DNA from: an archaeon
Lineage (GTDB): Archaea; EX4484-52; WAPT01
NCBI GenBank assembly: GCA_029258795.1
Contig: JAPDKB010000004.1
Span: 1-64,000 of the forward strand
Direction: 5' to 3'
DNA length: 64,000 nt
Part shown: piece by piece, positions 11,661-19,600 of the stretch
Position numbering within the stretch: the stretch's first letter is position 1
Layout of the letters: each line of letters opens with the position of its first letter
Notes under the pieces: generated by a model
Told to the model about the DNA's origin: nothing
Databases searched by the model: none
Seen by the model: the letters and a program-made list of their open reading frames with translations, nothing else
Program-made: the position numbers and the translations under genes

Positions 11661-11852
11661 CACCCCTTCATTTCATGTGGAAACAAACCGAAAATTTTAT
11701 AAAAATTATCGCAGGGTGGCGTGAATTTCCGCATTAACTTAACCCCCCTTCATTTCATGTGGAAATTTTGCGAATGTTAAGAAACGTTAAAACAATTAGC
11801 TGTTGTGAAAATTCGTAAAATTTGATTTGTTTTCCAAAAAATCACGTGAAAT
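11661..11852. promoter_or_regulatory. ORB (origin recognition box) cluster; putative replication origin or Cdc6 binding site
   Basis: Identical 21-mer ccccttcatttcatgtggaaa at 11663-11683 and 11745-11765 (reverse complement TTTCCACATGAAATGAAGGGG = ORB with G-string); AT-rich tract; inverted mini-ORB atcacgtgaaat at 11841-11852. Confidence 0.75.
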
Positions 11853-14800
11853 CATGAAGAATTGTTTGAGGCAACAGCAAACAAGCTTATCTGCCTGTCT
11901 TTCCTACCGAATAAATTATCTATATCTCTCTCCAGAAGCTTGAAGGTCTGGAGCACATAGCTTGAAACGCGGTAACGCTCAAGCAGCATTTTCGTTGGCT
12001 CGACGTACTTTCTTATGGCGCCTTCCGGCACAGTCAGCAGGAGTTTGCCACCACACTTCTCGCATTTACCGCTCAGAGGCACACGCCTGTACTTTTCGTT
12101 GCAGTCCACACATCTGAACGTCTGCTTGGAGAAGGTTCGCAAATTACCCTTTATGTCTCGCAGAAAGTGGTTAACTATTACAGCTTCCGCCACCTTGTTT
12201 TCATCGCAAGCCCTTATCAGCTCCGCTATCCTCAACTGCTCCTCTATCTTCTCCTCCATTTTCTTGAGCAGAACATACCTAGTTTTCAGCGGAGCGTCCA
12301 CTATGCTTGCCGTATCATGCGTGAACTTCATCCTTATTTCCTCCCGATCGAGCACATCCTCCACCACTCTCGGCCTTACCTCTATTTCAGTAGGCATGGC
12401 GTAATTCAGGGTTGCGTAGTAGAACTCGAGAGGGTAGCGCTCATCTATGTCTATGTTCCATGCTTCATCATCTATCTCTTCAGGATTCAGCTGCACGGTA
12501 AGGACAAGCGGCGCATCCATCGTGGAAGCACCTCTCGTTGCTGGCAGATATTTTCTAGAGAAGTTCAGCAAGGCATCCATTAAAAGCATTATAGAGTCCT
12601 CATCTCCATCCGCGTTGCGGCGTTTCGCAGCATGCCAGAAGGGGTGTGCAAAACACACCCTCGCTTTGGTAAAGCCGATTATCCTTCCAACTATGCCCGC
12701 TGATGTGTGCGGCGCTAACCCAATCACGAGCTTGCCTATCAGATCTTCCTTCTTCTTCACGTTGTAGTATGGCTTAAGTCCGTAGAACTTGACGAGAAGT
12801 TCATCCACGAACTTTGCCACCCTCACCAAATACTCGGCTGCTGAGCTCTCATCGTTATCAGAGATTATTATGTCCTGAGGCATCAGCTCAACTATCTGCT
12901 CATCACTAACGAGCTCCTTGCCATAAATATCGTGTGTGTAGCCCAGCTCCCTCAGCTTCTCAACACTCACCCCTATTTCCTTCGGCTTGAAATGTGTTAG
13001 AGGCACGTCCGTGCTGTCATATCTGATGGTGCCGTCCTTGTTAACATACAGACCATGCTTGACCCTCAGCAGACCCTTCTCAAGCCGTTCCATCGTTCTT
13101 TCAGCTCCGGAAACGCCGCGCACACCTTTGAAAAGATTGGGCAGCTCCTTCATTTGGAGGTTACGAAGAGCATCATTAACGAACTTCCTTATCTTCACGT
13201 TCATTTTGGCATAAGGTCTGGTTTCCATACCGCAGTGCTTCCTCTCCTTCACTATCCTGCCACACTTAACGCACTGGAAATAAAGTGTCGTCTCGCTCCC
13301 GCAGAGAGGGCAGACGGGATAAAAGACAAAATCGTTGCATTTCTCACACTTGTAGAGTGGGAATTCAGCTTCCACATATCCCTTGGAATAAGCCTCACTT
13401 ATGTTCCTCATCCTGCCTCCCTGCTGTCCGCACGGGAAGAGCACCTGAGGTCTGCCCTTCATCACCCGTTTATCAGCTTTCTCTGGCCTGCCCATCTTCG
13501 TGCCCAATCTTGTGGGGGCTTTCTTCATTATTTTTACGCCAGCCAGCTTCTCCAGAGCTTCCATCACATCGCTGCTGCTATCGATTTTTTCCAGTAAAGA
13601 GTTCACGTTAACTTCATCCGGCCTGCCCAGACAGTAATATGCTGCCAAGCTTTTTTCACGCAGGTGAATTTTGCCGTCCTTAACTTCACACGGCAGGCAT
13701 AACTCCTGCAAAATTGCATGAAGCTTCTCATCATAATCAAGCACAAACACACCATTTTCCATCCTGCCCTTAGAGAAGAAGCTAACGAGCTGCTTCAGCT
13801 GCTCCTTATCTATGTCGTGCCAGAAAAAATTATAGTAGGGGTGGAGCGGCACACCCAGCTCTTTTGAAATTGTAAAAGCTTCTTCCAGCGCTGGCGAGAC
13901 ATACGGTTTCCTAATGTACCTGCTGACATCAGCGCTGCACCTCTTTCCTTCCTTCAGTGCTTTCTCAACCTCAAGGACCCACCACTCCTCGCAATAACCA
14001 GCTGGCAGTAAAACGTGGTTGTTGGAGAGAAACTCACCGAAAGGCACGAGTATGTCTCCCAAACTAAGAATCTTCACAACGTTTCTCTTATGGTGTTCAA
14101 CATCCTCTTTGCTCTTCAGCTCAACTATACTTCCGTCTTTGAGCAGGACAACTGGCCCCTCAATAGCATCACAAACAGTGACCACCGTTGCTTTACCCGG
14201 AGCTTCGGTCGCCATCTGAGTGCCAATGGCAAGGAAATCAACAAGATGTGCTGTTGCAGGATGGATCGCTGTGGCTGCAAGTCCTGCTGTTCTTGCCCTC
14301 CCGTACCTCAATCTAAATCCTCCCTTTCTTGCTGGATGCGCTATTATGGGCCTTCCAGCAACAATCTTCTCCAGATACTTGGTGCTCGGGATGTATTTGG
14401 CTCCATCTCCCTCCTCCCTTTTTACATCCTTGGCAGCATGTATCCTGTGCTTCATTTCTATGAATTCCTCCAGCCACAACCAGTCCTCCAGACCAAACTC
14501 CTTACCGTACTTCTTTATTTTCTTCAAGAGCTTCTCTGCTTTCAATGGCAAACCATCGAGCAGAACAAGACACATCCCGCCTCTTATCCTGTTGGTCTCC
14601 ACCCTCTCCAGATCCTTGTAGTTGCTGACCTCCAGCTTTTCGGTTGGCTCTCCGGTCATCTCAACTGGCACGTTCTTTATTATGAACTCTATCTCCTCTT
14701 TGGTTGGATGGTACTGCTTCTTAGCAACACGATTGTAATAATCCTCTACCTCTGTGTAGTAACGCAGTATTTCCTTTTCCTCCGGCTTGTATCTATCCAG

Positions 14801-15319
14801 CCCCAGAGCACGCCTTATGTAATCTGCTGCCACCACAGACATGGCAGATGCTGTACCTCCCGCACTCCTTATCGGACCAGCGTAATAAACCGCAAGATAC
14901 TCCGTCCCATCATTGTTTTTCTTAATCCTCACCCTCGATATTCCTTCAAGTGGTGCAGTAACCACACCGAGAGTTAGATATGCGACAGCAACCCTAACAC
15001 CGGCTTCAGCCGCCTCCTCCCTGCTTTCAAAAGAGCAGAATTTACCGAGGGCTGTTTCCTTCCCCGCTATGAAAGCCACCCTCTCGTCATTCTTGTGGTA
15101 CTGGCCTTCCAGCTCCCTGATCCTCTCCTTCAAACCGGAATTGAAAATCTGCGGGAAGATGATTGAAACCAGTCCCTCCACCTTTGCCGCAAGGTCTTCC
15201 GCCACAGGTATTGCTACCTTTTTCTCAGGGTCATAACCTCTTGCCCTTGCCTGATTTGCTATGCTGTACGCTTTCTCACATTCCTCCTTTATCGCTGAGA
15301 AATAATCCTTCCATCGCAT
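11852..15319 (-). CDS. polC: DNA polymerase D large subunit DP2
   Basis: YYAGPIRSAGGT, GFRLRYGRAR, LAPHTSAG, RRNADGDED catalytic motif, Zn fingers; start moved to MRWKDYF because the longer ORF overlaps the + gene at 15377; no intein seen. Confidence 0.97.
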   Translation of the reverse strand: MRWKDYFSAIKEECEKAYSIANQARARGYDPEKKVAIPVAEDLAAKVEGLVSIIFPQIFNSGLKERIRELEGQYHKNDERVAFIAGKETALGKFCSFESREEAAEAGVRVAVAYLTLGVVTAPLEGISRVRIKKNNDGTEYLAVYYAGPIRSAGGTASAMSVVAADYIRRALGLDRYKPEEKEILRYYTEVEDYYNRVAKKQYHPTKEEIEFIIKNVPVEMTGEPTEKLEVSNYKDLERVETNRIRGGMCLVLLDGLPLKAEKLLKKIKKYGKEFGLEDWLWLEEFIEMKHRIHAAKDVKREEGDGAKYIPSTKYLEKIVAGRPIIAHPARKGGFRLRYGRARTAGLAATAIHPATAHLVDFLAIGTQMATEAPGKATVVTVCDAIEGPVVLLKDGSIVELKSKEDVEHHKRNVVKILSLGDILVPFGEFLSNNHVLLPAGYCEEWWVLEVEKALKEGKRCSADVSRYIRKPYVSPALEEAFTISKELGVPLHPYYNFFWHDIDKEQLKQLVSFFSKGRMENGVFVLDYDEKLHAILQELCLPCEVKDGKIHLREKSLAAYYCLGRPDEVNVNSLLEKIDSSSDVMEALEKLAGVKIMKKAPTRLGTKMGRPEKADKRVMKGRPQVLFPCGQQGGRMRNISEAYSKGYVEAEFPLYKCEKCNDFVFYPVCPLCGSETTLYFQCVKCGRIVKERKHCGMETRPYAKMNVKIRKFVNDALRNLQMKELPNLFKGVRGVSGAERTMERLEKGLLRVKHGLYVNKDGTIRYDSTDVPLTHFKPKEIGVSVEKLRELGYTHDIYGKELVSDEQIVELMPQDIIISDNDESSAAEYLVRVAKFVDELLVKFYGLKPYYNVKKKEDLIGKLVIGLAPHTSAGIVGRIIGFTKARVCFAHPFWHAAKRRNADGDEDSIMLLMDALLNFSRKYLPATRGASTMDAPLVLTVQLNPEEIDDEAWNIDIDERYPLEFYYATLNYAMPTEIEVRPRVVEDVLDREEIRMKFTHDTASIVDAPLKTRYVLLKKMEEKIEEQLRIAELIRACDENKVAEAVIVNHFLRDIKGNLRTFSKQTFRCVDCNEKYRRVPLSGKCEKCGGKLLLTVPEGAIRKYVEPTKMLLERYRVSSYVLQTFKLLERDIDNLFGRKDRQISLFAVASNNSS

Positions 15320-15376
15320 GGCAACAAATATTGATATATCAAAACTTTTATTTAATTTCAGAGCCAAAGAGTAAGC

Positions 15377-15964
15377 ATGGTGTTTGGCTTTCTTTTTGGA
15401 AAGAAGGAAAAGCAGAACAAAAAGGATGAGCTCGAGGAGATAAAGAACCGTGTTCTGAGCACGGAAAACGCGCTGCACCAGCTTTCTGCTTACACTCAGG
15501 AGGAAATAACGAAAATCTATTCCTACCTCCATCAGTTACACACAGACATAGATGGAATTGCAAGTGTTGTTGACGAGCTCAAAAATGGAAGAGGTAATGA
15601 TAGTGGTGCTGCTATTTCCATCCTTCAGCAGAGGGTTGAGAGCCTTGAAAGGATGGCCGATAACCTTTCTATAATAGGCAGGGTCGCGCTGAAAAATCAT
15701 GAGAGGATAAGCAAGCTGGAAAGCAGGATAAATGAGATGCTTCTTGCGATAGACAGGCTTGTGGATGAGGTCATAAAGAACAGCGCCCAAGCAATAAGTA
15801 CTGAGGAAAGGAAGAAAGAGAAAGCCGAAAAAAAGGAGGAGACAGAAGTGAAGGCTGAGGTGAAAAAGGAGGAGAAGAAAGGGAGGATGTCGAAGGAGAG
15901 GGAGTACCTTGCTGAACTTGCAAGATTGAGGAAAGAACTCGTGGAGCTAAAAACATTCAGCTAA
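15377..15964 (+). CDS. Coiled-coil protein with N-terminal amphipathic motif (MVFGFLFGKK)
   Basis: 195-aa ORF, heptad-like helical content, codon usage like its neighbours, divergent from DP2. Confidence 0.7.
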   Translation: MVFGFLFGKKEKQNKKDELEEIKNRVLSTENALHQLSAYTQEEITKIYSYLHQLHTDIDGIASVVDELKNGRGNDSGAAISILQQRVESLERMADNLSIIGRVALKNHERISKLESRINEMLLAIDRLVDEVIKNSAQAISTEERKKEKAEKKEETEVKAEVKKEEKKGRMSKEREYLAELARLRKELVELKTFS

Positions 15965-16029
15965 TGTCGAGTAAAATTGGGGATGGTGTAGGAAACATTT
16001 ATAAATGATGAAATTCGAACATACTTACT

Positions 16030-16290
16030 GAGGTAATTGCCATGGCGGCTACCCCGAAAACAAAACATTACAGGATGTTCTTTAAGAAGTGGGTAGCCGT
16101 TGGAATGTATCTAATTCCCGGATGCTCCACAGAATAAATCCGGGATGACTCCACATCTCTTCTCATGGGGTGTGGACGACCGGAGGAGGTTGGTGTGCTG
16201 ATCTTCTCGGATGGAATTGATTCGGAGGGTGGGGGTCTGGAGGAGAGAAGGTACACACCCCCCACCGTCCGAGCCCGATTTTCCTCTTTT
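16030..16290 (+). ncRNA. Unassigned structured RNA (five consecutive hairpins), possibly a structured small mRNA
   Basis: Stems ggcggctaccc/gggtagccgtt, tcccggat/atccggga, tccacatctc/ggggtgtgga, ccggaggaggttgg/ctgatcttctcgg, tcggagggtggggg/cccccaccgtccga; G-U pairs favour the + strand; TATA (tttataaa about 15998) upstream and a T-rich tract downstream. Confidence 0.55.
16042..16137 (+). CDS. Putative 31-aa small protein MAATPKTKHYRMFFKKWVAVGMYLIPGCSTE
   Basis: GAGGT RBS-like sequence about 7 nt upstream of ATG; lies downstream of the TATA box; ORF 5' part is sequestered in a stem. Confidence 0.35.
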   Translation: MAATPKTKHYRMFFKKWVAVGMYLIPGCSTE

Positions 16291-16416
16291 CCACATGTAG
16301 AAGTGGTGACCCTAATATTTTAGACAAACCTACATATAAATTTTTCGGTTAATGGGAAAAATTTCCTAAAATGAAAAAAGAAAAGCTTAAATAAGTTGGA
16401 AGGAATCTCAAACCTT

Positions 16417-16647
16417 ATGCGCGTGTCGATGGTTGAGCTGATTGTGGATGCCAAAATGGAAGATGTGGAAAACGCTTTGAAAAACAGCGAGTTTGTGGAT
16501 GATTTTGAAATAGAACCTCTTGACAAGGAAGACGTGCGAAAAAGCGTGCTGATAGTTTTCAAGGAACTGGTGGATTCCAAATACCTTGATGAGGTTCTGC
16601 GCAAAATCTTTCCGTTTGAGGAGATAAAGAAGGGCTTGGAAGAATGA
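16417..16647 (+). CDS. Small acidic hypothetical protein
   Basis: ORF preceded by BRE/TATA-like gaaaagcttaaata at leaderless spacing; converges with DP1. Confidence 0.6.
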   Translation: MRVSMVELIVDAKMEDVENALKNSEFVDDFEIEPLDKEDVRKSVLIVFKELVDSKYLDEVLRKIFPFEEIKKGLEE

Positions 16648-16649
16648 AC

Positions 16650-18122
16650 TCAGTTGTAAAAGTCCAGAACCCTCACTTCTCTCGTGTTTAGCTCGACCAC
16701 AGTCACCTTTCCAGGATTGGCAACATGCCCAACCCTGTCCATAAAGCTGGTTTGTGCCTGGAAGGTTGATGAGCTGATGAGAGTTATGCCCTTGTAGTTA
16801 TCAACACAGTGTGAGTGCAGATCACCTGTATGGAATATATCTGGAACCTTATCTATAACCAGCTGATCATGTTCGTGTGGTGCCTGAATTATACATCCGT
16901 ACGCTGGAGCAAGATGCCTCTTCTTCAGCACTTCCTTCATGACGTATTGTGGGTTTGTGGTGCCGTACTTCCTTATAGGAGTTATCATATCTATAAGGGA
17001 GGTGAAGCTATAGCCGTGATACATTAAAACAAGTATGCCTTTTTCCCCGTCTTTTCTGTGTATTCTGACGTAAGCAGGATTCGTGGCCAGAAAAACGTTG
17101 TTCAGGTGGTAGAGTTCTGGAACAAGCTCTTTGGGTAGAGGTGGTTGTGGCTCCGCGCTCCTCACAGCGTCGTGGTTTCCGGGGCAGAGCACAATAGCTA
17201 TGTGTTCTGGAATCTTTTCCACAAACCTTTCGAGGAGCTCGTACTGCTTATATATGTCCTTCACAACCAAATCATCCTCCTGTTCAGGATATATTCCTAT
17301 GCCATCCACAAGGTCTCCCGCAATGAATAGGTATTTGACAGAAGATGCTATCTTGTCATCCTTATCGTTTATCCATTTCAAAAACCTCCTTTCAATATCC
17401 ACTATGAACTCCTTGCTTCCGAAGTGGAGATCTGAGATGAAAACCGCGGAAACGGGATCACTCACCTTATTTATGTCTGTGGGCAGCGGAACATCGGGAA
17501 AAACTATGTTCGATGCGTAAAAGAAATTTCCATTATAATTACCCCTTAAGCCAATAACCTCATCCTCCAGAACATAATCTCCCAGTTTGGTGGCATCATC
17601 TTTCAAAAAAACATTAACCACGCCTGTCGTGTCCTCCAGTTCAAGAATGTAATTTCCATTTTTGGTTTTCGTTTTTTCACGCACAACCCCGATTATAGCG
17701 GTTTCACCATTCCCCTTAATATCCTTTAACTTTCCTATGGAAACTGCATTCCTCAGTTCTGCGCGCTGCATCAAAATATCTCTTATTTTTTCGTATCTAT
17801 CCTTGAACATCTCAACGAAAAGTTCAACACCTTTTTGGGAAATATTTCCATTTGAGGTGTCTCTGTTCTCAACCTCCACAAAGAAATCATACTCCTCCGC
17901 TTTAACCCTTTTAACCGGCCTTATGACTTCAACCCTCTCTTCATTTCTCACCTCTTCAACCAACGGCTCGAGGTGCTTTCTTGTGAGTACACCCTCCTCT
18001 ATCTCCAAAGAATATATTTTCTCAACAGGAATTCCATGCTCCTTTATGAAATCGAAAGCTGATGGCTCAATGAGAATTCCACGTTCCATCAACTCAAAGA
18101 TCAGCTTCTGTACAGATTCCAT
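16650..18122 (-). CDS. polB: DNA polymerase D small subunit DP1 (proofreading exonuclease)
   Basis: OB fold (LEDTTG) and calcineurin-like motifs ISDLHFG, AGDLVDG, PGNHD, YHG, HTGDLH. Confidence 0.96.
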   Translation of the reverse strand: MESVQKLIFELMERGILIEPSAFDFIKEHGIPVEKIYSLEIEEGVLTRKHLEPLVEEVRNEERVEVIRPVKRVKAEEYDFFVEVENRDTSNGNISQKGVELFVEMFKDRYEKIRDILMQRAELRNAVSIGKLKDIKGNGETAIIGVVREKTKTKNGNYILELEDTTGVVNVFLKDDATKLGDYVLEDEVIGLRGNYNGNFFYASNIVFPDVPLPTDINKVSDPVSAVFISDLHFGSKEFIVDIERRFLKWINDKDDKIASSVKYLFIAGDLVDGIGIYPEQEDDLVVKDIYKQYELLERFVEKIPEHIAIVLCPGNHDAVRSAEPQPPLPKELVPELYHLNNVFLATNPAYVRIHRKDGEKGILVLMYHGYSFTSLIDMITPIRKYGTTNPQYVMKEVLKKRHLAPAYGCIIQAPHEHDQLVIDKVPDIFHTGDLHSHCVDNYKGITLISSSTFQAQTSFMDRVGHVANPGKVTVVELNTREVRVLDFYN

Positions 18123-18146: not shown

Positions 18147-19385
18147 TTATAAATCTAATTCCTGCTTGAGTAAGAGAAGTATTTTGTCGTGTGTTGTTTT
18201 TGAGATGGAGAGTGAGATCTCTCTTGTCCTCCCATACCTGCCTTTAGAGATGACGCTCGCGTTTATTAAGCCCTGGATGTCGAGCTCCGCTATTATGTCT
18301 GAGACACGTCTTTGTGTTAAGGGTCTCAACCCCATCTGCGCACACAACAACTCGTAGCTTTTCTGTATGTCTCCCGTGAGCACGCACTTCTTTCTTTTGA
18401 GCACGGTTAGAATTGCGAAAAGCACCAATTTCGAGTGTTTGGGTAGCACACGTGCTGCTTCAGTCATCCTGTCAAGATCAAGTTTCTCTTCCGCCATATC
18501 TATGTGCTTTTCCTCCACCCTATCATCATTATTCCTTTCAGCGATCTCACCCGCTATCCTTAATAGGTCAAGAGCCCTTCTCGCATCACCATGTTCCTGC
18601 GCTGCCAGAGCAGCACATTTGTTTATGGCTGCTTCATCTATCTTCCCTTCATTGAAAGCAAGCATGGCCCTATCAAAAAGTATGTCCTTAAGCTGTTCAT
18701 AATTATAAGGTGGAAATATGATCTCCTCTTCAGAAAGTGATGATTTGACTCTGGCATCAAGACAATCTATGAATGAAAGGTCGTTTGATATCCCAATTAT
18801 AGATACGTTCACATCGTTTGTTGTTTCACACATCCTTGTGAAATTGTAAAGAAGCTCGTCCCCAACCTTTTTCACAAGAGCGTCAATCTCATCCAGAACA
18901 AGAATGACGTTTCCACCCACTCTTTCCAGCGCGTTATAAAACCTCCTGTAAACTTCATCAGTAGGGAGGCCGGTTGTTGGTATCTCCTCCCCCAACAAAT
19001 TTGCGAGATGTGCTAAAAGCCTGTACTCTGTGTCGGCAACCTTTTTCATCTTGCAGTTGGCAAAGAGAACCCTCAATTTTATATTATGTTTCTCAGCAAA
19101 AGCTTCCAAATTCGAAGTAACGTAAGTTGTTACTAAGGTTTTACCCGTACCAGTCAACCCGTAAATAAATATATTGGATGGCTTTTCATTTCTGAGGACG
19201 GGAGCTAAAATTCTACTAAGTGTGTTGATCTGCTCATCTCTGTGGTAGATCTTCTCTGGTCGGTATTTGATGGAGAGCGCGTCCTTGTTTTTAAAAATAG
19301 ATTCTTTCTTCATGAAATCTTCAAAGAGGTTTTCCAAGGTTTTTTGTGTTGGAGTTGTGTAATGAGATAGTGTTCTCTCCTCCAT
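18147..19385 (-). CDS. cdc6: Orc1/Cdc6 replication initiator
   Basis: HRDEQI, GLTGTGKT Walker A, VLDEID Walker B, HGDARRALDLLR, SKGRYGRTR winged helix; start taken at MEERT. Confidence 0.97.
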   Translation of the reverse strand: MEERTLSHYTTPTQKTLENLFEDFMKKESIFKNKDALSIKYRPEKIYHRDEQINTLSRILAPVLRNEKPSNIFIYGLTGTGKTLVTTYVTSNLEAFAEKHNIKLRVLFANCKMKKVADTEYRLLAHLANLLGEEIPTTGLPTDEVYRRFYNALERVGGNVILVLDEIDALVKKVGDELLYNFTRMCETTNDVNVSIIGISNDLSFIDCLDARVKSSLSEEEIIFPPYNYEQLKDILFDRAMLAFNEGKIDEAAINKCAALAAQEHGDARRALDLLRIAGEIAERNNDDRVEEKHIDMAEEKLDLDRMTEAARVLPKHSKLVLFAILTVLKRKKCVLTGDIQKSYELLCAQMGLRPLTQRRVSDIIAELDIQGLINASVISKGRYGRTREISLSISKTTHDKILLLLKQELDL

Positions 19386-19388
19386 AAG

Positions 19389-19600
19389 CATCACATGAAA
19401 TATAGGAAGTGTAGGTGTATTGTAACATCTCAATTAAAAAATTTAAAATAATGGTTTGGGTTGGTGTGAGAGACACTCCTTCATTTCTCATGGAATAGAT
19501 AATTATATTAAGCGATTTTTTATAACAATGTTATATTAAAAAACACATCTAAATACCATTCCATTTGAAATCAAGGGGGCACTCCACTAGAAATGATAAG
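19389..19600. promoter_or_regulatory. Replication origin (oriC): inverted ORBs flanking an AT-rich DUE upstream of cdc6
   Basis: ORB(-) cactccttcatttctcatggaata 19474-19497; AT-rich 19498-19557; ORB(+) attccatttgaaatcaaggggg 19558-19579; mini-ORBs at about 19390 and 19582. Confidence 0.85.

Follow-up and report, generated by a model that had tools for sequence, protein, structure and literature searches.

What does the GC-rich gap between the two genes for DNA polymerase D (PolD) of this archaeon encode, and on which strand? The window analysed here is the whole 64,000-nucleotide (nt) stretch (C4:1-64000) of a 1.17-Mb genome that is 96% complete (G000). The locus in question, at about 15990-16350, is flanked by PolD DP2 (11852-15320, minus strand) on one side and by DP1 (16650-18122, minus strand) and cdc6 (18147-19433, minus strand) on the other, as an earlier note made from the letters alone had placed it. 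That note described five hairpins, a short open reading frame (ORF) and an opposing promoter, and proposed either a novel noncoding RNA (ncRNA) or a sequestered small-protein messenger with an antisense partner. As an RNA locus it is real, conserved and, it appears, undescribed. The reading we prefer, which comparative sequence evidence leaves about evenly poised between right and wrong, is that of two convergent, overlapping ncRNA genes: a plus-strand gene (RNA-A) carrying a kink-turn (K-turn) and a minus-strand gene that would be the older.

Comparisons were made within the phylum, class and order of the organism, which are the same set of 42 genomes in 8 families of the genome collection; the genus is represented by G000 and two sister genomes, G001 and G002. 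A denotes the RNA-A locus and B a paralogue, RNA-B, with three orthologues each and hence six genus copies. The parts of the plus-strand unit are as follows.

15998-16005, plus strand: TATA box TTTATAAA of RNA-A, preceded by GAAACA.
16023-16285, plus strand: RNA-A, a predicted structured RNA of about 260 nt, with an inferred 5' end and its 3' end at the T-runs.
16044-16101, plus strand: hairpin 1, with core CGGCTACCC / GGGTAGCCG and a variable loop.
16116-16145, plus strand: hairpin 2, TCCCGGAT / ATCCGGGA, containing the end and stop codon of the ORF and competing with the canonical stem of the K-turn.
16139-16184, plus strand: K-turn module, closing hairpin 3 and matching a strict descriptor.
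16184-16210, plus strand: hairpin 4, variable in sequence.
16221-16273, either strand: hairpin 5, common to RNA-A, RNA-B and a minus-strand small RNA (sRNA) of family f6.
16279-16294, plus strand: T-runs (TTTT CC TC TTTT), the presumed terminator of RNA-A.

The segment 16020-16300 folds on the plus strand into the five successive hairpins of the earlier description, with a minimum free energy of -106.2 kcal/mol (z-score -2.89; 2 of 200 shuffles as good), versus -83.9 kcal/mol (z-score -0.66) on the minus strand. Sense folding beats antisense folding in all three RNA-A orthologues (-103.3/-79.9, -105.6/-91.0 and -102.3/-95.5), the sense strand is the more stable in 6/6 A and B copies, and consensus folding by alifold gives the same order (A, -80.4 vs -74.6; B, -65.4 vs -55.3). 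The stretch forms a GC-rich island (55-59% vs 42% locally) and, because it is kept at 70-73% identity between the same neighbours in both other genus genomes, it is more than a chance feature. The promoter is conserved as well: AAAATTTATAAA is retained in 3/3 genus genomes, the next 20-25 nt are variable, and a conserved block opens near the predicted start at about 16023-27, which was placed by the usual archaeal spacing between TATA box and start. The TATA box and T-runs that the earlier note had read are both present; T-runs follow hairpin 5 on this strand in 6/6 genus copies, and oligo-T is an archaeal terminator.

The 8-bp core of hairpin 1 does not vary in the three genus genomes and is therefore silent on covariation, while its loop is rewritten between species. 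Hairpin 2 is mismatched in fixed MAFFT columns; read by eye, it recurs in G001 and G002 in a shifted register, CCGGGAT/ATCCCGG. Hairpin 4 is rewritten in both sister genomes and in a strain variant found in run X2, which by reading still allows a 6-bp hairpin; in G000 it holds many G.U pairs on the plus strand. DNA contigs of four runs were compared with the locus and yielded strain variants only. Between the TATA box and the RNA (before 16031), the X2 variant carries ...GTCGGGCTC, complementary to the 3' tail GAGCCCGA; this pairing, found only in that variant, would give an 8-bp stem able to enclose the entire RNA.

The K-turn provides the most specific plus-strand signature. It was sought as a canonical stem (C-stem), a 3-nt bulge, tandem sheared G.A/A.G pairs and a non-canonical stem (NC stem). 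In G000 the C-stem pairs 16139-43 with 16180-84, the bulge is GAU (16144-46), the G.A/A.G pairs join 16147-48 to 16178-79 and are followed by C16149.C16177, and the NC stem (16150-55/16171-76) closes hairpin 3. The strict descriptor, with 4-bp stems, is matched by 3/3 A orthologues, and the three RNA-B copies match with a 3-bp NC stem. The tandem G.A/A.G pairs are invariant in 6/6 copies, and the GAU bulge and both stems are kept in all six. Changes in the stems preserve pairing: in the C-stem, U-A becomes C-G between A orthologues and C-G becomes U.G in the G001 copy of B, and in the NC stem A-U becomes G.U in the G002 copies of both A and B. In the X2 variant, C16149>T accompanies C16177>T, so that the 3b.3n position goes from C.C to U.U, and A16184>G turns a U-A pair of the C-stem into U.G. 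Four of these wobble changes pair on the plus strand only, being A.C mismatches on the other strand. The descriptor finds 139 matches in 2.34 Mb of strand, versus 72-87 in shuffles, so that about 0.015 would be expected per 260 nt. Two genes of the L7Ae family lie above cut-off in the genome, with the L7Ae gene at C1:48294-48572, and RNA-A is probably bound by L7Ae, to judge from its sequence.

Hairpin 2 and the C-stem of the K-turn, a motif missed in the first reading, use the same CCGG, and the NC strand of B has a possible pairing partner upstream in GGCACCAGGGU; the K-turn therefore competes with an upstream strand in both A and B. The earlier statement that G-U pairs work only on the plus strand is right about hairpin 4 and the K-turn domain and fails for hairpin 5, which is entirely Watson-Crick in G000. 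A joint A and B model of the K-turn domain was abandoned, as MAFFT misaligned A against B.

The last 46 nt of RNA-A also match C4:93461-93508 on the minus strand, which led to the paralogue.

C4:93456-93700, minus strand: RNA-B, some 190 nt long, which has T-runs and a conserved BRE/TATA (B recognition element and TATA box) of its own.
16259-16282, either strand: invariant 24-mer CCCCCACCGTCCGAGCCCGATTTT, the 3' arm and tail on the plus strand and the 5' part of the minus-strand RNA.

RNA-B is present in both sister genomes. A and B have in common the module AUAA-N-CGG-GAU-GA and the 3' hairpin, and the 24-mer is identical in 6/6 genus copies. In RNA-B the sense promoter is conserved and the antisense promoter is not. 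A guide/target idea was pursued by searching the genome with A and B in blastn-short and dropped: the search returned two partial copies of the 3' arm, in G000 only, which are not conserved targets. These are CCACCGTCCGAGCCC (15 nt, C1:277416-277430) and CCGTCCGAGCCCGA (14 nt, C1:20399-20412), intergenic or in 3' untranslated regions (UTRs), both oriented complementary to the minus-strand RNA and absent from both sister genomes.

The strand facing RNA-A has signals of its own.

16334-16348, minus strand: BRE/TATA CCGAAAAATTTATAT of the minus-strand RNA, with a predicted start at about 16316-16313.
16200-16316, minus strand: predicted minus-strand RNA, a 5' leader plus hairpin 5, placed by homology with family f6.
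16417-16647, plus strand: gene for a protein of 76 amino acids (aa), leaderless, with a TATA box at 16388-16395, divergent from the promoter of the minus-strand RNA.

The element CCGAAAAATTTATAT, read earlier at 16348-16334, is present and near-invariant in 3/3 genus genomes, with TTAGGGTCA at the predicted start. No antisense frame is open in all three, so the opposing promoter serves no conserved ORF, in agreement with the earlier note's failure to find it a protein gene. It is the most widely conserved feature of the locus. Hairpin 5 itself scores 77-87 bits in the six genus copies under a covariance model (R1) and folds about equally on the two strands in G000 (-29.3 vs -26.4). In the G001 copy of A, two changes in the hairpin make C.A and A.C mismatches on the plus strand and wobble pairs on the minus strand.

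Where else does this hairpin occur? Exact 18-mer scans of two large collections returned 45 loci in genome contigs and 52 in metagenome contigs; after filtering, four loci were left, all from two metagenome-assembled genomes of the same genus, the others being GC-rich bacterial chance matches. Synteny reached further. Among DP1 loci from 30 genomes, in which the gap after DP1 was inspected, genera g11 and g13 of family f6 hold a homologous hairpin in the same place and orientation. A degenerate pattern finds the hairpin motif in 15/42 genomes, namely 3/3 in family f1 and 12/16 in f6, two of the eight families; a reversed control gave 0 matches. The other six families gave 0/23, a count in which incomplete genomes without a match do not prove absence. 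There is one copy per f6 genome; an extra pattern match in G007 lies inside coding DNA, looks like chance and was set aside. Since the opposing promoter heads a conserved minus-strand RNA in these 15 genomes, the antisense partner suggested earlier is plausible. Between the families the hairpin carries compensatory changes (GGGGG/CCCCC vs GGAAG/CTTCC).

In f6 the signals point to the minus strand. All nine aligned genomes carry CG(A/T)TAA..T(A/T)TAAAT on that strand about 45 nt before the hairpin, then about 20 variable bases and an invariant block, TTCTGGAAA(A)ACTTGGGCTCGGATGGGTGGAAG, at the expected start; the invariance begins at the predicted start, TTCTGGAAAACTTGGGCTCGGATGGGTGGAAG (9/9). 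A T-run of at least 4 lies within about 15 nt past the hairpin in 8/9, G007 having none. On the minus strand 94.4% of cells pair, with a covariation score reached by 0/500 shuffles, for a structure derived from the same alignment; five of six apical pairs are changed on both sides. RNAalifold gives -17.9 on the minus and -4.6 on the plus strand, and single folds favour the minus strand in 9/9. In genus g6, the hairpin follows the stop codon of a plus-strand, peptidase-like gene by 4-26 nt in all four genomes that have the upstream flank on the contig (4-6 nt in two), so no plus-strand promoter fits there. Taken together, the G.U pairs, the position of the promoter and the bounds of the conserved stretch place the f6 RNA on the strand of the opposing promoter.

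These data bear on a reading, improbable in our judgement, in which only the plus strand is expressed and the opposing promoter belongs to the control region of the 76-aa gene, as a symmetric TATA box or an operator. Hairpin 5 would then be a 3' stem-loop or terminator and, in f6, a 3' UTR element of the upstream gene. Several observations are in keeping with it: the better sense folding in 6/6 genus copies, the RNA-B hairpin that lacks a conserved antisense promoter, the T-runs that follow the hairpin on the plus strand in all copies, and the f6 hairpin just past a plus-strand stop codon. TATA boxes are, moreover, nearly symmetric. Against this stand 31/144 cells of f6 helix 1, which are G.U or U.G on the minus strand and A.C or C.A mismatches on the plus strand, together with the poor plus-strand alifold energy there. 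A separate TATA box, 25-32 nt ahead of the AUG, is available to the 76-aa gene; in 3/3 genus genomes and 9/9 f6 genomes a CGAAA-type BRE is placed so as to aim the opposing promoter at the hairpin; and f6 conservation starts at the predicted minus-strand start.

The converse appears distinctly unlikely: that in G000, too, function resides in the minus-strand sRNA alone, and that the K-turn, hairpins and ORF of the plus strand merely reflect GC-rich sequence or a long transcript from the minus strand. The hairpin and its promoter are indeed the only parts common to the two families, and the G001 changes in the A hairpin wobble on the minus strand and mismatch on the plus. Against this account stand the K-turn consensus in 6/6 copies with its four wobble changes pairing only on the plus strand, the RNA-B promoters, of which the sense one is conserved and the antisense one is not, and the more stable sense fold of every genus copy.

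Does the plus strand serve instead as a messenger?

16042-16137, plus strand: 31-codon ORF MAATPKTKHYRMFFKKWVAVGMYLIPGCSTE, with GAGGT at 16030-16034, 8 nt upstream.

The ORF is as described earlier, GAGGT-preceded and with its AUG in the 5' arm of hairpin 1. On this view, which we consider improbable, RNA-A would encode a protein of 30-31 aa and the rest of it would be a long, structured 3' UTR; hairpin 1 would mask the start codon, and an antisense RNA or L7Ae would control translation or stability. The frame is open in 3/3 species (31, 30 and 30 aa) across an in-frame 3-nt indel, and also in the X2 strain variant, where over the listed differences we read two silent and four replacement codon changes. 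GAGGT stands 8-10 nt before the AUG in 3/3 orthologues, changes in the M-Y-L/I-I-P stretch are silent or conservative (TAT/TAC, CTA/ATT, ATT/ATC, CCC/CCG), and A and B agree in where the stop codon falls ahead of the K-turn. The protein itself is less convincing: residues 5-15 differ almost wholly between species, the conserved codons coincide with RNA stems, and RNA-B keeps the RNA domains with an ORF of only 8 codons (MAPGLDRA). The 12 f6 genomes have hairpin and opposing promoter without such an ORF, and the chance of a frame staying open through what are effectively two lineages is about 0.1, by a rough estimate that was not computed.

The type I toxin-antitoxin model that the earlier note entertained lacks support on the same points, and on the nature of the product. 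As read from the translation, the peptide is basic and not hydrophobic, with KK inside its only apolar stretch; it has no membrane-spanning stretch or hydrophobic helix of the kind found in type I toxins, and its N-terminal half is unconserved. The antisense promoter is conserved, and overlap of its transcript with a toxin mRNA is a prediction. Read-through of the stop codon was also considered and rejected, the frame beyond it being open in G000 and G002 and broken in G001 and B. A 19/20 copy of GGATGCTCCACAGAATAAAT, the ORF end with its stop, lies at C2:102722-102741 on the minus strand behind a TATA-like box; it reads ATG GGA TGC TCC ACA AAA TAA and adjoins an intron-bearing tRNA gene.

Very unlikely, too, is a role at the level of DNA, whether as a cruciform or binding site belonging to the replication cassette or simply as a terminator working both ways between convergent units. 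It would suit the position between DP1 and DP2 beside cdc6 in both families and a hairpin with T-runs on both sides, but the G.U-type variation and compensatory changes indicate selection on RNA pairing, and RNA-B lies far from any replication gene. No repeat resembling an origin recognition box, judged against the known consensus, and no repeat family was seen, and the GC skew of the contig shows no sign of an origin. A promoter firing straight into a mere terminator would also be pointless. For the replication-control RNA of the earlier note, position in the PolD/cdc6 cassette is the only thing that speaks.

These comparisons return us to the two convergent ncRNA genes. The facing promoters, at 15998 (plus) and 16340 (minus), leave about 290 nt between predicted starts; each strand has strand-specific structural signs of its own, and convergent transcription is predicted. 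The BRE/TATA at 16334-16348 would drive the minus-strand sRNA, the older gene, whose invariant 5' part, ...AAAAUCGGGCUCGGACGGUGGGGG..., would form the 5' arm of the long hairpin. In f6 this gene would be a compact unit of about 100-115 nt, promoter-hairpin-T-run, set back to back with the promoter of the gene for a ferredoxin-like protein in the gap between PolD DP1 and DP2. In the present genus only, a 260-nt RNA-A would start from the TATA box at 15998, offer a K-turn to L7Ae, and end in the mirror image of the minus-strand hairpin followed by T-runs. Because they overlap by at least about 70 nt, RNA-A and the minus-strand RNA should pair or block each other's transcription. RNA-B, elsewhere on the contig, has this K-turn module as well as the identical 24-nt 3' arm and tail, and by way of that 24-mer it could pair in trans with the minus-strand RNA.

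A number of observations weigh against this account. Model R1, run on the 42 genomes, matches in the genus only, and the link to f6 consists of synteny and a 15-18-nt motif. RNA-A and RNA-B occur in three species, two of them close relatives, so their covariation amounts to few events; the f6 covariation counts are inflated, as the tool warns of a structure taken from its own alignment. Single-sequence z-scores in f6 are mixed (-0.95/-0.18 and -2.02/-0.75 favour the minus strand, -1.68/-2.07 the plus), and z-scores of the single hairpin do not settle the strand. The genus hairpin is Watson-Crick in 5/6 copies and holds little strand information. In G000 the minus-strand RNA folds no better than its shuffles (z-score -0.22), and no T-run directly follows the hairpin on that strand, the next being complementary to 16057-16066. 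The invariance of the 24-mer in RNA-B, which lacks a conserved antisense promoter, needs another cause. The ORF is better preserved than a purely noncoding reading predicts. Finally, the seven sequencing runs that match this DNA include no listed RNA run, and neither transcript has been seen.

An elaboration of the convergent pair, which we regard as unlikely, would be an RNA switch gated by L7Ae or by translation and coupled to an antisense toggle. The ORF (31 codons in A, 8 in B) ends at a UAA 1-2 nt before the K-turn C-stem, and its last codons would be the strand that competes with the K-turn, as hairpin 2 in A and, in B, through the pairing GGCACCAGGGU/ACCCUGUGCC. Formation of the K-turn would then depend on a ribosome or on L7Ae, and with it the stability of the plus-strand RNA, the 3' domain of which would be the exact complement of the conserved minus-strand sRNA; the latter would be made back to back with the small protein gene found across the phylum, within the Cdc6/PolD cassette. 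Such a pair would form a new family of archaeal regulatory RNAs with two members, and a tie to the expression of replication genes would be possible.

Neither strand appears to belong to a described family, in line with the earlier suggestion of a novel ncRNA. The Rfam scan returned no family at gathering score and seven chance-level rows at E <= 10 (best E 0.53), every one far below its cut-off, and five related loci, at gathering-score and E-value thresholds, gave chance rows only. The genome's RNase P RNA (RF00373; C5:23597-23919, 133.6 bits) and signal recognition particle (SRP) RNA (RF01857; C2:91079-91355, 139.4 bits) lie elsewhere, with no match to either in the window. ARAGORN, a standard scan that may miss intron-riddled tRNA genes, found no tRNA or transfer-messenger RNA gene anywhere in the 64 kb. 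Box C/D sRNAs have an RUGAUGA C box and a CUGA D box at their ends, C'/D' boxes, guides of 10-12 nt and a length of 50-70 nt; here a C-like GGGAUGA occurs in an RNA of 260 nt, and its single CUGA (16198-16201) is lost through two substitutions in the strain variant (16199 T>A, 16200 G>C) and absent from G001 and G002. The C/D rows in Rfam are likewise at chance level (sR40, 17.9 bits against a cut-off of 50). H/ACA sRNAs have an ACA box 3' of the hairpin and a pseudouridylation pocket beneath a K-turn or K-loop. No ACA stands 3' of any hairpin on either strand (GCCCGA on the plus; ACU, AUU and GCU on the minus), which removes H/ACA sRNAs; the internal loops, inspected as possible pockets, measure 1x1 to 2x5. 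The earlier failure to match tRNA, SRP RNA, RNase P, C/D or H/ACA patterns is borne out. Searches of the literature turned up nothing on the RNAs of this lineage, the sequence motif itself not being among the subjects searched.

The neighbouring features are these.

15320, minus strand: true start of DP2, an ATG (MRWKDYF...), in place of 15532.
15377-15964, plus strand: ORF for a 195-aa coiled-coil protein, the upstream neighbour.
16353-16366, either strand: palindrome GGGAAAAATTTCC, between the back-to-back promoters of the 76-aa gene and the minus-strand RNA.

The sequence MRWKDYFSAIKEE begins at 15320, and the longer DP2 ORF overruns this start (window 15233-15532). DP2 and the 195-aa gene do not overlap and have a 56-nt divergent promoter region in common; the 195-aa protein matched no Pfam or NCBIfam family. 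The 76-aa protein is acidic and its gene occurs in 35/42 genomes, in all eight families of the phylum-level group, with a second, partly broken copy in genus g3. Its predicted structure is beta-alpha-beta-beta-alpha-beta, a ferredoxin-like fold (predicted local distance difference test, pLDDT, 82.6). Among solved structures it came closest to ferredoxin-like proteins of a generic kind (S6, ACT, PII), without any match at E <= 0.001; it matched no Pfam or NCBIfam family, and its close relatives are all unnamed. Upstream of this gene outside families f1 and f6, the hairpin was found in 0/14 loci examined.

The palindrome keeps GGAAAATTTTCC in G001 and G002 and is a possible operator. A repeat of about 35 nt, AATGGGAAAAATTTCCTAAAATGAAAAA, with palindrome GGGAAAWATTTCC, occurs at five AT-rich intergenic sites in the genome (window 16350-16384; C4:67491-67524, minus strand; C3:62357-62398; C3:64470-64503; and C3:39911-39965, minus strand) and could represent a small repeat element or serve as an operator. 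The best DNA match for the locus as a whole comes from a hydrothermal-vent metagenome.

Next to nothing is known of regulatory RNAs in DPANN-type archaea, which are uncultured and have no transcriptomes. The locus offers a K-turn RNA predicted to bind L7Ae that is neither a guide nor RNase P or SRP RNA, and a facing sRNA that in two families always occupies the gap splitting the usually contiguous PolD genes. If the two RNAs worked as a sense/antisense switch, they would rank among the few conserved archaeal pairs in which both partners are structured ncRNAs, and would give a handle on gene regulation in small genomes. If the locus proved unexpressed, it would still show cleanly how comparative data can correct the strand assigned from a single sequence.

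How does the locus compare with known systems? Type I toxin-antitoxin loci consist of a small hydrophobic membrane toxin and an overlapping antisense RNA. The present locus resembles them in that a hairpin hides the start of a short ORF and in a promoter for an overlapping antisense RNA; it differs in its basic peptide, in an antisense RNA that would overlap the 3' domain and not the ORF start, and in an antisense gene that stands without any ORF in 12 genomes. The Rfam families HgcC, HgcE, HgcF and HgcG are GC-rich, unassigned ncRNAs of AT-rich hyperthermophiles. RNA-A is likewise a GC-rich structured island with its own promoter in an AT-richer genome, but no Rfam match at E <= 10 goes beyond the chance rows.

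A closer parallel in structure is provided by L7Ae-bound RNAs. RNA immunoprecipitation sequencing (RIP-Seq) in Sulfolobus acidocaldarius, in the portions of the reports drawn on here, recovered K-turn RNAs that include sRNAs without known function and mRNA leaders (PMC5539422; PMC6298567). As in the K-turns presented in part of that work, a bulged ...CCGG-GAU-GA... faces ...GA-CCGG... in RNA-A, with stems corresponding to Kt-b and Kt-n (PMC5539422). As in the L7Ae leader, to the extent that those portions describe it, an upstream segment can pair with a K-turn strand, and the K-turn may need protein to form. RNA-A, however, is neither a C/D, H/ACA, RNase P or SRP RNA nor the leader of the L7Ae gene. 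It would be a free-standing RNA of 260 nt with a 3' hairpin, a paralogue and a convergent partner, and its binding by L7Ae is predicted.

For the arrangement of the two genes, the nearest precedent is Pyrobaculum, in which, in the part of the study considered, convergent sRNA genes overlap the 3' ends of genes, dual-strand sRNA loci occur, and C/D or H/ACA-like guides account for 87% of the conserved cases (PMC3388794). The likeness to those cases, as far as that part goes, is that an sRNA gene with its own promoter aims at the 3' end of a convergent unit: the g6 hairpin lies 4-26 nt past the stop codon in four genomes, and transcripts from both strands would overlap. Compared with the same part of the study, the present pair differs in that the minus-strand RNA carries no C/D or H/ACA boxes and its plus-strand partner would itself be a structured ncRNA with a K-turn.

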